Shown here: piece by piece, positions 11,001 to 30,939 of the stretch | Layout of the letters: each line of letters opens with the position of its first letter | How positions within the stretch are numbered: position 1 is the first letter of the stretch | Origin: a virus | Lineage: Duplodnaviria > Caudoviricetes | Reading direction: 5' to 3' (one strand) | DNA length: 64,000 nucleotides | Virus record (IMG/VR): IMGVR_UViG_2974623298_000001 | Span: 12,262 to 76,261 of that record | The notes under the pieces: generated by a model | What the model saw: the letters and a program-made list of their open reading frames with translations, nothing else | Told to the model about the DNA's origin: nothing | The model's database searches: none | Program-made: the position numbers and the translations under genes

Positions 11001-14000
11001 AACATCTGGGCAGCCGCATCGCTTGCCATCCAGCGCGGATGGGCTGCAGCCAGCGTCGTTGTCATGGCGGCATGGGGTGCAGCGTCTGCGCTTGCGCAGG
11101 GCGTGTACCACGCGATCATGCTTGCACGTCAGCGTGCGTGGCACGCGGCAGCACTGGCCCTGTCTGTCGGCTGGGCAACGGCTAGTATTCTGATTCAGAA
11201 GGCTTGGGCAGCGGCCTCGATCATCCTCACTGCAGCTTTCTGGAAGCGCATGTGGGTCGTCTTCGCGGCGGGCAACAAGGGTCTTCTGTCTATTCTTCTA
11301 GCAGGCGGCAAGGCGATTGTCGCACTGTTTGCTTCGCCTTGGGCAATTGCCATTGGCATTGTCATCGCACTGATCGTTCTGTTCCGCGATCAGATTGCAC
11401 AGGCCTGGAACAACATCGTCAACTACTTCAAGAACCTTCCCAAGGAAACAGCATCCGCGCTGTCGCCCCTTGCTAACATCTTCATACGAGCACGCAACGC
11501 TGTCGTGGGAGCATTCAACTCGCTGCCCGAGGGCGTGAAGGGTGCGCTCCTCAAGGTCGTTGCGATTGTTCGCGCAGCCGCCATGAAGGTGTACGAACTC
11601 TTCAGCTACCTCAACCCGTTCGCCCACCACTCGCCTTCGCTGGTCGAGAACGTGACGAACGGCATGGCTGTCGTTAACGCCCAGTTCGCCAACGCCTCGC
11701 GCAATGCGCAGTCGCATATCGGAAAGCTGCACAAGTCCATCAAGCAGTTGCAGGACTTGAGTTCGCCGATGCAGGCGCAGAACGACAAGGCGAAGGACGA
11801 CGAGTTCCGCGCAACGGCCACCAAGGCTGGCGCGGCCGGATCGCTGCCTGCATACGACGCGCTCAACGCTGACGTAAAGGCAGCGAAGAGCTACATGGAT
11901 CAGCTCAACAAGTCCATGGAGGCTCAGGAGCAGCGGCTCAAGGACATCAAGGCTGGTGTCGAGGCGTACGACGCAGCCATCGAGCAGATGAACTCTGCAC
12001 TCGAGGTTACCAAGGCTATCCAGGCCGACGTCAACACCGCCCTGGATGGAGCCAAGGCGCGTTACGACCGCTATGCCAACGCTCAAATCAAGGGCACGCG
12101 CGCCGCAGAGGACGCGCTGTTCGATAACGAGATGGCACAGAAGCGACTGCAGCTTCAGATCGCCAAGATGCAGGAAGAGTCCGGCACCGTAGATGACGTG
12201 ACAGACTCTTACTCGAAGCTCCAGGGCGAGATCGAAACACTGACCGCGAAGCAGACCGAGCTTCGTAAGGCTGGCGCTGGTTCGGATGTGCTGGGCACAT
12301 ACGACAAGATGATCGCCGACCTGAAGAGCCAGCAGTCCGGGCTCATGACTGGTGGTGCCGACAGTCCTGCTGGCAAAATCGCTGCACTCAACACTTCTCT
12401 TCAGGCGCTGCAGCGGCAGGCCGAGATCATGGACCTCGAGAAGTCCCTGAAGTTCGATTCGCTGAACCGCAAGATCGAGCAGTTCACCAACAATGTTGAA
12501 GAGCTGCCATACGGTCAGATCATGTCGGGGCTCGACGCTTCGCGCACCTCGATCAATGCACTGCAGTACTCCTATGATCAGCTCGACATGGTCATGGCGG
12601 GGCAGCAGGCTCGCATAGACGCCACCCAGGCGCAGCGCGATGCACTCCAGCAGACCTACGACTCTGAGAGTAAGCGCCTTGAGACCGTCCGCGAGAAGTA
12701 CGAGGCGGTTGAAGAGGCCGTTCGTAGCGGCGAGGAAGCACTCGAGTCGTTCTCGTCTGCGTCCGAGGAAGTCGTTCGTCGCCAGGAAGAGGCGGCGCGC
12801 GCAGCAGAAGAGGCCAGCAAGAAGCTCAAGAAGAAGAAGGGCGGCGCTGGCGGCGACAGTGGCGATGAGCTGACCCCTGGTGCACAGAACTTCCTTGAGG
12901 GTGCGGCTGGTGACTTCGAGACCTTCGGCGGAATGTCCACCGTTGGTCGTGAGGGCGCAGGTCTTGATCAGTCTGCACAGATCGACGAGTTCACCAACAG
13001 CCTTACCGCCGATCTTGAGAAGCAGCTCGGTGGCCTCAATCCGTTCTCGGGATTGAAGAACGCTTGGAACAAGACGGTCGGCTGGTTCAAGGGCATGATG
13101 CCCGGCTTCGGCGACATCTTCAAGAACGTCGGCAGTGGGATCGGCAGTGCGTTCTCGTCTGACAAGAATGAGAACGTCAAGCGGTTCGGTGACGCACTCT
13201 CTAACTCCGTTGAGGCTTTGAAGAATGTTTGGGAGTGGATCAAGAAGGGCGGGTCCATAATTGGAAAGCTCTTCGGTCCAGACTTGCAGGCAACCCTTCA
13301 GGGGCTCGGTGACGGGTTCAAGACCGTCATGGATAAGATTGGCCCACCGCTGTCGGAGCTCGGTAAGGTTGCGATCCCGTTCCTGACCACCGCATTCCAG
13401 CACCTGTCGCCAGTCATTGGCGTATTTGTTGCGGCCCTTGAGGTTGTCTGGGAAGTTATCAATGGCGCCATCGGCCCAGTGTTCAGCTGGCTTGGCGACC
13501 TGATCAGTTCGATCATCCGCATCATCACTGGTATTGTGAAGATCCTCATGGGTGCCATGAAGGTGATTCAGGGTGTCATCATGGTGGTCGTCGGCATCAT
13601 CAAGGGTGTCATCGGACTGTTCATGGGCGAGGGCCTGTCGGGCTTCAGTATGTTCGGCGACGGACTGAAGAAGATCTTCGGCGGGTTCGGTGACATGTTC
13701 GGCGGTATCGTCGACATCGTCAAGGGCATCTTCACGGCAATCTGGAGCACGATCAAGAATGCCGTTAAGCTGATCTGGAACGTTGTCTGGGGTCTCGTCA
13801 AGGGCATCATCGACTTCTTCAAGACGATGTGGGACGTTCTCGTCGGACACTCGATTGTGCCTGATACGATCAATGCGATCATCGACTGGTTCAAGGAGCT
13901 GCCCAGCAAGCTGCCTGGTATGGTGTGGGGACTCATCACCAAGGTGATTGGCTTCTTCCTAAAGCTGCCGATCATGATTGGCCAGGCTCTAATAAAGCTT

Positions 14001-29135: not shown

Positions 29136-30341
29136 CTACTCCTTGATGAGCCGCTGCACTACCTTGGGCTTGGGCTCGCCGATGCTCTCCTGGACGGAAG
29201 AACGAAGCCTCGATTTCTGAGCCGCGTTCAGTGCGTTGCCATTCAGGAGCTTGTCAATTTCACTGTTGTTGATTCTGCCAAGTGCTGCGAAGAGGTTATC
29301 TCCGATGATCTCGCGTACGGTAGCAGGATCGTAGGACTTCCGACGCGACGACTTGAACACAACATGGAAGTCATCCGTGTCATACTCGGTCTCGTCGGAG
29401 TCCATTGCATCTTCGATCAGCTTCTCCATCACTTCTTCGATGGCGTACTTGATCGCCTTCTGTGCACCCTCGAGTTCGAGGTACCGCTTCGCCATCTCGT
29501 TGCGGTCGCCAGCCAGGGCCATTATCCCGCCTGCCTGAACGTTCTTCGTCAGGACGGGGCACGTAGCTTTCACTACGCAGAACTGGCATTCCGCATTGAG
29601 CGTACGCTTGCCGGGCTCGGGCTCTGCGATGATACGCTCGGCCACCCGACGCACGTACTTCCAAGTAGCCACGTTGTCGTCGCGGGTGAACTTCACTTCG
29701 ACCGGGTCATACCGGAGCTGATCGAAGCAAACCCAAATCTCGTCGGGCTCCAGCTCGAACCCGAGCTCCTTGGCGATCTCGTTCTTGGCCAGCATGATAG
29801 CCAGTCCATACAGGCGACCCTGCGCCTTCTGTCGCAGACCCTGCGGCGTGAGGTGCTGACGCCAGGTCTTGTAGTCGACGACCCGAACAATCTTCTTGCC
29901 GTTCTCCTCGAACATGTCGAGGCGGTCGAAGATGAAAGTGTAGGGCACCTCACCGATCGAGGTCTTAATGGTGACCCTGATCTTGCGCTCGACCATGAGC
30001 ACCTGCACCTTTTCAAGATCGGTGCGGGAGAACCAGCGTTCGAGCATGTCGATGCCGTCGTTGTACATGTCGTCTTTGGAATCTGGAATGCGCATGAATT
30101 GCTTCATGAACTCCTGCTTGAAGTAAGCAACGAGTACGTTCCAGTCTAGCTCGTCGCGGGTCTTGCTGATGAACACTTCATCAATGATCCGCTCGAGAAC
30201 GTCGTGCACGGCGGACCCCAGCTTAGCTGGGTCCGAGCTACCCCCTGGACTCGGCGTGCGCTTAACCATCTCAGCGTGGTATCGGAAGGTACAACCCTCG
30301 AACACCTGGATGGAGGATGCCGAGATGGTTTTGAGTTCCAC
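29136..30341 (-). CDS. Cas4/RecB-family PD-(D/E)XK exonuclease
   Basis: GTG at 30341 overlaps the WhiB stop; CTFRY, DRLD, VDYKT, Q..LY and CQFC.....C (1+3 Cys). Confidence 0.85.
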   Translation of the reverse strand: MELKTISASSIQVFEGCTFRYHAEMVKRTPSPGGSSDPAKLGSAVHDVLERIIDEVFISKTRDELDWNVLVAYFKQEFMKQFMRIPDSKDDMYNDGIDMLERWFSRTDLEKVQVLMVERKIRVTIKTSIGEVPYTFIFDRLDMFEENGKKIVRVVDYKTWRQHLTPQGLRQKAQGRLYGLAIMLAKNEIAKELGFELEPDEIWVCFDQLRYDPVEVKFTRDDNVATWKYVRRVAERIIAEPEPGKRTLNAECQFCVVKATCPVLTKNVQAGGIMALAGDRNEMAKRYLELEGAQKAIKYAIEEVMEKLIEDAMDSDETEYDTDDFHVVFKSSRRKSYDPATVREIIGDNLFAALGRINNSEIDKLLNGNALNAAQKSRLRSSVQESIGEPKPKVVQRLIKE

Positions 30342-30733
30342 TACTTGTTTCCCCTCTTCGTAGTTATGCCGCCCCAGATACCGTCGGTCGAACCAGTGCG
30401 TTCTCGATAGTCGAGGCACTCGAGTTTCACTGGGCAGCTCATGCAAATCTTCTTCGCGCGGTTAGCGCGGGCCGCTTGTCCCCGGCCAGGGAAGAAGGCG
30501 TCCGGGTCGTGATACCCTACACAGAGGGCGCGGCGGGTCCACTCTTCGGGGGCGAGACTGAAGGCGGCTTCGGGGGCGTCGGCTCCGGGCTCTCCGAACT
30601 CTTCTCCTTCTCCACAGTCGCAGGACTCTCCTGTTCGATCGGGTCGAAGAGCGAGGGCTGCGCAGATTCCGTTGCACCTAAAGGGCGGCGGCCCCCGGAC
30701 ATCTCGAGCTCGAACGCTGTCGTCGGTTCGCCA
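30341..30733 (-). CDS. whiB: WhiB-family transcription factor domain (open frame lacks ATG/GTG/TTG)
   Basis: Manual translation: WTRRALCVGYHDPDAFFPGRG...AKKICMSCPVKLECLDY...GIWGG; absent from the ORF track. Confidence 0.85.
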   Translation of the reverse strand, partial: WRTDDSVRARDVRGPPPFRCNGICAALALRPDRTGESCDCGEGEEFGEPGADAPEAAFSLAPEEWTRRALCVGYHDPDAFFPGRGQAARANRAKKICMSCPVKLECLDYRERTGSTDGIWGGITTKRGNK

Positions 30734-30939
30734 TCACCGAGAAGCTCGTCAGCGTCAGCTTCGGCATCGGCCTTGGCCTTCTCTTCCGACTGAAATGCCG
30801 TCTGTTGCAGGTGCTGCTCGAAGGCGGTTTGTGTGGGAGCCTTGGCTCGGAAGTCCTGATACCCGTCCTGATCCATCCCTCCGCGTACGGGATGCAACTC
30901 GTTGGGTCCAGCGGGCATCTTGAACTGCTGTTCAGTCAC
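30517..30939 (-). CDS. Hypothetical protein (possible N-terminus of a WhiB fusion)
   Basis: 140 aa, AAGGAG RBS, overlaps the WhiB frame. Confidence 0.65.
   Translation of the reverse strand: MTEQQFKMPAGPNELHPVRGGMDQDGYQDFRAKAPTQTAFEQHLQQTAFQSEEKAKADAEADADELLGDGEPTTAFELEMSGGRRPLGATESAQPSLFDPIEQESPATVEKEKSSESPEPTPPKPPSVSPPKSGPAAPSV

Follow-up and report, generated by a model that had tools for sequence, protein, structure and literature searches.

How is a complete transcription factor domain produced from a reading frame that holds no start codon ahead of it? This question is raised by a locus in a 64,000-nucleotide (nt) stretch of virus DNA (Duplodnaviria; Caudoviricetes; IMG/VR record IMGVR_UViG_2974623298_000001, positions 12,262 to 76,261), here called the window, which comes from a Montyvirus-like Gordonia phage and is 99% identical to phage BenoitCattle at this region. 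The whole locus lies on the minus strand in the early block of DNA-metabolism genes, flanked by a DNA methylase gene and Cas4, and is composed of an upstream open reading frame (ORF A), an overlapping frame that encodes a WhiB domain, and a Cas4-family gene. The WhiB frame is shifted by -1 relative to ORF A. It opens at position 30733, after a TGA at 30736-30734, and runs to a TAG at 30343-30341; its first in-frame ATG, GTG or TTG is the ATG at 30442, and the GTG at 30430 is the next. Because no usable start precedes the first cysteine of the domain, the complete WhiB domain would be reached only via frameshifting. The comparative sequence evidence makes it very probable that a programmed -1 ribosomal frameshift at the heptamer C CCT TTA generates a WhiB fusion protein. 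A preliminary description of the window had favored this reading, with the junction ...GRRPL-RCNGIC...SCDC...-WhiB, and the reading is now strongly supported by the conservation of the heptamer in 23 loci and by a switch of selection between the frames. The anatomy given there also holds: the minus-strand WhiB domain ends at TAG 30343-30341 and is coupled to the Cas4-like GTG, its frame is open only from 30733 with no ATG, GTG or TTG before the domain, and reading both frames places C CCT TTA (30685-30679) in phase with the overlapping ORF at 30939..30517. In window coordinates, and with lengths of proteins in amino acids (aa), the locus is built as follows.

30517..30939, minus strand: ORF A, the zero-frame gene; GTG start, 140 aa; AAGGAG Shine-Dalgarno (SD) sequence 5 bases upstream; stop TAG at 30519-30517
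30692..30696, minus strand: SD-like GGGGG, 6 nt upstream of the heptamer
30679..30685, minus strand: slippery heptamer C CCT TTA, X XXY YYZ in phase with ORF A; CCT TTA encodes Pro86 and Leu87
30341..30679, minus strand: -1-frame part of the predicted trans-frame gene; 112 codons plus TAG; the first codon, AGG, re-reads A30679
30662..30676, minus strand: first linker cysteine pair, C-N-G-I-C, in the -1 frame; invariant Arg directly before it
30605..30622, minus strand: second linker cysteine pair, C-D-C-G-E-G, in the -1 frame; part of the invariant C-x-C-G-E-G
30356..30541 (about), minus strand: WhiB (WhiB-like, Wbl) domain with four iron-sulfur (Fe-S) cysteines and GIWGG turn; Pfam PF02467
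30341..30442, minus strand: ATG-started stub of 33 aa, without the first Fe-S cysteine and the conserved Trp; labeled "WhiB family transcription factor" in several GenBank records
29136..30341, minus strand: Cas4-family exonuclease gene; homologous start in BenoitCattle, PF12705 in relatives

In the proposed mechanism, ribosomes would initiate at GTG 30939 and read ORF A. At C CCU UUA a fraction of them would slip back by one base, so that tRNA-Pro pairs with CCC instead of CCU and tRNA-Leu with UUU instead of UUA; in another version, tRNA-Pro may slip alone while the A site over the rare UUA is empty. Shifted ribosomes would continue in the -1 frame to TAG 30343-30341 and release a 199-aa protein, and non-shifted ribosomes would terminate at TAG 30519-30517 to yield the 140-aa protein. 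The first 87 codons of ORF A are common to both products. The predicted fusion (87 + 112 = 199 aa) joins this N-terminus to a four-cysteine linker and a complete WhiB domain. The slip itself and its efficiency are what we infer from the sequence. A rare UUA or AAA codon in the A site may have a role in the frameshift, and a tRNA-limited pause at this codon plausibly contributes to the slip.

The alignment of relatives that had been proposed with the preliminary description comprises 23 related loci, each read in both frames, from at least 10 named phage genera or lineages (with Gordonia, Tsukamurella and Rhodococcus as hosts) and 8 metagenome contigs. In all 23, the homologous site is occupied by a heptamer that follows X XXY YYZ in phase and takes one of three versions: CCCTTTA, CCCTTTC or CCCAAAA. 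Hence it is the slippery pattern, rather than the exact sequence, that is retained among the homologs. CCCTTTA is found in Montyvirus, Woesvirus, Tinduovirus (Tsukamurella), the GTE7-like Austin, Demosthenesvirus and most of the metagenome contigs. CCCTTTC is carried by contigs L012/L013 and L014, in which the zero-frame Leu is replaced by Phe and the X XXY YYZ pattern is kept. CCCAAAA is present in Orchidvirus (RobinSparkles), GMA3, GordTnk2, Jumbo, Camerico and the Rhodococcus phages Mbo2 and ReqiDocB7; the GC content of the five Gordonia loci in this group is 46-53%. In Escherichia coli, C_CC.U_UU.A is shift-prone and avoided in genes, C_CC.U_UU.C is a high-level -1 frameshifter, and C_CC.A_AA.A stands on the same shift-prone list from E. 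coli assays (Sharma et al. 2014, PMC4066793). CCCTTTA occurs a single time in the 64-kb window with both strands counted, and TTA is the rarest Leu codon (0.34 per 1000 codons). The zero-frame A-site codon is the rare, A-ending UUA or AAA in all lineages but the two with CCCTTTC. In contig L014 (ERZ724032 NODE_23199; 1755-2015) the WhiB-like sequence is lost soon after C-x-C-G-E-G, and the contig ends about 260 nt past the heptamer; it is probably truncated or chimeric and was used for the heptamer region only.

Directly after the heptamer, the -1 frame encodes a linker module that starts with R-C-x-G-x-C and is completed by C-x-C-G-E-G 18-61 codons later. In a codon table of 21 loci, the R, C, G and C of the first motif and the C, C, G, E and G of the second are invariant in the -1 frame, and synonymous codon changes occur at every one of these residues. 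The invariant Arg is encoded by AGG, AGA, CGT or CGC, each of the four linker Cys positions uses both TGC and TGT, and 3-4 different codons serve for Gly; which of the two Arg codon families is used follows the last base of the heptamer (A or C). The zero-frame residues encoded by the same bases vary, for example between G/D/V/A/S/F/Y and between A/V. This synonymous variety, together with the varying zero-frame residues, argues that selection acts on the -1-frame protein. Mbo2 and ReqiDocB7, the two Rhodococcus phages, have the C-x-C-G-E-G motif as well.

The substitution pattern along the locus points in the same direction. The ratio of nonsynonymous to synonymous substitution rates (dN/dS) is 0.10-0.14 for the zero frame upstream of the heptamer and 0.07-0.11 for the -1 frame in the WhiB domain. 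In the overlap it amounts to 0.90 for the zero frame and 0.59 for the -1 frame, values that are ambiguous on their own; the motif-level codon table is decisive. Substitutions fall on zero-frame third positions upstream and on -1-frame third positions in the WhiB domain, and the heptamer marks a sharp end of the zero-frame third-position periodicity. It is also the point from which purifying selection acts on the -1 frame instead.

These data also bear on the most trivial explanation, in which an indel from sequencing or assembly, or the decay of a WhiB pseudogene that has no functional product, simulates a frameshift. The arrangement does resemble a disrupted gene, and several annotators left the region empty. 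However, the same split recurs in 8 metagenome contigs and in more than 100 records that were sequenced independently, which the single indel considered in the preliminary description cannot explain. A decaying gene is likewise at odds with the low dN/dS of the WhiB segment (0.07-0.11) and with a -1 frame that stays open through indels, even as the distance between the cysteine motifs changes from 18 to 61 codons. On these comparative sequence data, error and decay are refuted as explanations, with next to no probability left to them.

The position at which ribosomes would enter the -1 frame is narrowed down by its upstream stops. From the heptamer to the end of the WhiB domain, the -1 frame is open in all 23 loci except one cut-short contig. 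A TGA of this frame stands immediately before the heptamer in RobinSparkles and GordTnk2 and one codon before it in GMA3 and Jumbo, and L012, L016, L018 and L019 have their stop six codons upstream of it. Within this entry window of 0-6 codons, no start or near-cognate start is found in the lineages that have such a window, which leaves the non-AUG start that had been named as an alternative without a candidate there. Taken together, these stops and the missing starts place the entry within a few codons of the heptamer. The -1 ORF of Camerico spans 183 codons with zero ATG, GTG or TTG, and no such codon precedes the first WhiB cysteine in the window phage or in any of the Monty-, Woes-, TIN- and GTE7-like phages.

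Several observations weigh against a frameshift at the heptamer as the source of the WhiB domain. The first is the presence of internal ATG or GTG codons in GMA3, GordTnk2, Jumbo, Mbo2, ReqiDocB7 and Demosthenes, which could give a free WhiB domain. In GMA3, GordTnk2, Jumbo, Hollow and Demosthenes an in-frame ATG or GTG is located 4-8 codons before the first WhiB cysteine, and GenBank annotators used internal ATG or GTG codons as starts. The WhiB domain might accordingly be translated alone, from a non-canonical or internal start or by reinitiation, with the heptamer and the cysteine motifs being incidental. Yet the internal starts are not conserved among lineages, and a protein begun at the one in Hollow would lack the invariant Trp, which has its counterpart in solved WhiB structures. 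The loci that have such starts still retain the heptamer and the cysteine module; none of them has a whiB that stands alone behind an ordinary start and lacks the heptamer, the situation that in the preliminary description would have spoken against frameshifting. Independent translation also lacks a start before the first cysteine in the window phage and the Monty-, Woes-, TIN- and GTE7-like phages, lacks any start at all in Camerico, finds no near-cognate codon in the entry window, and leaves the -1-frame selection on R-C-x-G-x-C right after the heptamer unexplained. It is therefore considered very unlikely. In Hollow (L007:877) and Demosthenes (L011:877), the annotated GTG of a 66-aa "WhiB" sits after the invariant Trp that precedes the first cysteine. 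Since the heptamer and the cysteine module are intact upstream of it, this annotated start is probably wrong or secondary.

The second observation is that base composition and part of the substitution pattern remain zero-frame-like at about 30655-30565. Such a composition would be expected if the frame changed elsewhere, either through a ribosomal shift nearer 30575, toward which codon bias had pointed in the preliminary description, or already in the RNA through transcriptional slippage of RNA polymerase, for which the window phage could offer the G5 run that shortly precedes its heptamer. The zero-frame-like composition up to about 30565-30575 stands, but the switch near 30575 does not: the invariant -1-frame cysteine motifs at 30676-30662 and 30622-30605 lie upstream of that point, where moreover no conserved in-phase slippery site exists. 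As to transcriptional slippage, no homopolymer exceeds 3-5 bases, and the G5 run is not conserved (GGTGG, GGAGG or AGGAG elsewhere). A frame change in the RNA or at another site is thus extremely improbable. With the shift placed at the heptamer, the composition at about 30655-30565 points to dual coding or loose constraint rather than to a later shift site, and the linker outside of the cysteine motifs would therefore be either dual-coded (overprinted) or loosely constrained.

The search for stimulatory elements adds further points of this kind. No conserved hairpin or pseudoknot downstream of the heptamer was detected by folding of the window sequence, by RNAalifold or by per-sequence shuffles. 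RNAalifold on 16 sequences gives -2 kcal/mol without covariation; minimum free energies of the single sequences deviate from their shuffles by z-scores of -2 to +1, and the window fold has z = +0.9. Only the Monty-like phages (the window at 30605-30660 on the minus strand, Diabla, Monty, Woes and PokyPuppy) have a hairpin, GCGCAG...CUGCG with an inner stem, about 16 nt past the heptamer, which is too distant for a classical stimulator. Upstream, the CCCTTT lineages carry an SD-like element of the sequence GGAGG, GGTGG or GGGGG, and in L012 it reads AAGGAG despite a change of the encoded residues from Gly-Gly to Arg-Ser. The element overlaps Gly-Gly codons, is separated from the heptamer by only 6 nt and has no counterpart in the CCCAAAA lineages. 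It may act as a weak stimulator, for which the sequences are suggestive but weak evidence. Lastly, the trans-frame protein itself is a prediction, known from sequence alone.

What would be gained by the shift is a complete Wbl domain. Residues 49-110 of the -1 reading match Pfam WhiB (PF02467) with 60.6 bits against a gathering cutoff of 23.6 (E 2.2e-16). The domain has the four Wbl cysteines (C...C-x2-C-x5-C) as well as the G[IV]WGG turn, and C55, C81, C84, C90, G102 and W104 are invariant in the homolog alignment. Matches in the PDB include WhiB (8dy7_H) and WhiB1, 3, 4 and 7, of which WhiB (8dy7_H) and WhiB1 are the closest solved relatives; the alignment begins at the Trp just before the first cysteine. 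In the AlphaFold2 model the WhiB domain has a predicted local distance difference test score (pLDDT) above 90, and the cysteine linker, with a pLDDT of 56-61, is uninformative. Wbl proteins hold a [4Fe-4S] cluster and bind region 4 of sigma-A. By analogy, the fusion may hold a [4Fe-4S] cluster and act on host or phage transcription through sigma-A, and the extra cysteines of the linker may bind metal.

With its extra four-cysteine module, the predicted fusion is a new Wbl architecture. An exhaustive phmmer search, with the -1 part (114 aa) as query and a collection of 1.84 billion representative proteins as target, returned 17,566 WhiB-domain matches, and in none of them is the linker found behind an ordinary start; outside of these phages, the module occurs in no called protein of this collection. 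The sole called protein that reaches the cysteine module, P0142, starts with MGGRCKCGEG and is gp47 of RobinSparkles, a truncated call from the same frameshift architecture. P0047 (203 aa) was considered as an in-frame fused homolog and rejected, as its acidic N-terminus is unrelated and the protein is otherwise an ordinary WhiB.

The product of non-shifted ribosomes is less telling. The 140-aa protein is predicted to be largely disordered and has a Pro/Ser/Glu-rich tail, and its AlphaFold2 model consists of one long helix (residues 39-67) in otherwise disordered chain (predicted template modeling score 0.21) and gives no functional clue. ORF A matches PHROG 6890, but has no Pfam family and no significant PDB sequence match (best E 0.33). 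The label "endonuclease", which is attached to it by PHROG 6890 and many RefSeq records, is hence unsupported; no recognizable nuclease domain or fold is present, and the label looks like a propagated error. None of 15 ORF A homologs in a large protein collection is fused to WhiB. The N-terminus shared by both products (30679-30939, minus strand) has three invariant T-A-F motifs (QTAF, TAF and TAFE.E), which look like repeated linear binding motifs, and an invariant D-F-R. The CCCAAAA lineages have no TAF region, but a DF[RT]P-like motif was seen by eye just before their heptamer.

Among known systems, the closest parallel in layout is offered by OrfA/OrfAB of the IS3 family (IS911, IS3 and IS150). 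In both cases, a short upstream ORF overlaps a start-less downstream ORF, an X XXY YYZ heptamer fuses the two, and two proteins with a common N-terminus result. IS3-family frameshifting tolerates low-efficiency motifs (PMC4066793). In contrast to the insertion sequences, no transposase or helix-turn-helix domain is present here (ORF A has no Pfam match), and the heptamer is C CCU UUA/C or C CCA AAA instead of A AAA AAG. IS911 and IS3 additionally use a defined SD-like element together with a stem-loop or pseudoknot, whereas no conserved structure was found here.

The tail assembly chaperones G/GT of lambda and the actinophages share with this locus a phage-encoded, conserved -1 frameshift that yields a short and a C-terminally extended product. 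The gene and the genome region are nevertheless unrelated, as the present locus belongs to the methylase-Cas4 block, and the extension is a transcription factor domain instead of a domain that binds the tape measure protein. An identity of the locus as G/GT was rejected, given its position between the DNA methylase and Cas4 and the lack of any chaperone family match.

In dnaX of E. coli (tau/gamma), -1 programmed frameshifting likewise takes place on a canonical heptamer with an SD-like element upstream, which is here only a possible stimulator. The SD spacing is 10 nt in dnaX as compared to 6 nt here. In dnaX the shifted frame stops almost at once, which makes the frameshift product the shorter of the two, whereas 112 residues with the main domain would be added by the shift here.

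With the cellular Wbl proteins (WhiB1-7, WhiB/WhiD) and the phage-encoded ones, such as WhiB of mycobacteriophage TM4, the domain shares PF02467, the four Fe-S cysteines, GIWGG and a basic C-terminus. It differs from them in having no start codon of its own and in a predicted N-terminal extension of about 135 aa that includes the invariant four-cysteine module. Recoding linked to a rare UUA, in this case bypassing, has been proposed for terminase genes of Streptomyces phages (PMC10732093). Both situations involve a rare UUA at the recoding site in a phage of a high-GC actinobacterium, but a one-base slip on a canonical heptamer is proposed here in place of bypassing. The UUA is not essential in the present locus, since UUC or AAA replaces it in sister lineages.

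That the frameshift is a regulated switch instead of a fixed-ratio device is an unlikely, speculative extension of the proposed mechanism. It draws on the zero-frame A-site codon of the heptamer, in every lineage but two an A-ending codon that is rare in high-GC hosts, through which the slip fraction could report host tRNA supply or translational state. If the switch is regulated, the slip fraction would set the ratio between the short protein and the fusion, the two could compete for the same partner via the TAF-motif region, and the four-cysteine module could be a second metal or redox center.

The split is widespread and poorly annotated. It is seen in 90 phage records that match the region, 65 of which cover at least 80% of it. 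The annotation was read in 18 related phage records: nothing is annotated between ORF A and Cas4 in nine of them, four have the 33-aa stub only (named WhiB in two, and "hypothetical protein" in two, Monty and Woes), and the remainder have an internally started WhiB. In metagenome contigs with ORF A homologs, a stretch of about 100-210 nt ahead of the Cas4/PDDEXK gene likewise has no gene call. Judged from the 18 records, over 100 related phage records appear to miss the frameshift. Literature searches on WhiB, frameshifting and related actinophages returned no paper that describes the locus, and in the records of related phages that were read, no frameshift other than that of the tail chaperones is annotated. 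The locus would thus represent canonical -1 programmed ribosomal frameshifting in a new gene context.

As such, it would be a second class of conserved, apparently obligatory -1 frameshift in actinophages, acting on a transcription regulator. For phages of Gordonia, Tsukamurella and Rhodococcus, well over 100 public records would receive a corrected annotation. For recoding research, the locus would provide a compact, naturally varied test set with three heptamers and no obvious stimulator. For phage biologists, it would make it possible to test how the dose of a sigma-factor-binding regulator is set by these lytic phages.

Two further features concern the ends of the overlapping frames. At L015:1035-1397, the zero-frame stop in the region of the first WhiB cysteine codon is lost (TGT GTA GGG to TGC GCA GGC), and ORF A runs about 50 codons further, across the WhiB domain; the zero-frame tail is evidently free to differ in length between relatives. 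In the window, the TAG of the WhiB frame and the GTG of the Cas4-family gene overlap by one base (TAGTG, 30339-30343, minus strand), so that ribosomes finishing the frameshifted frame could reinitiate on Cas4. A GAGGGG about 9 nt upstream of this GTG is a possible SD sequence of the Cas4-family gene itself.

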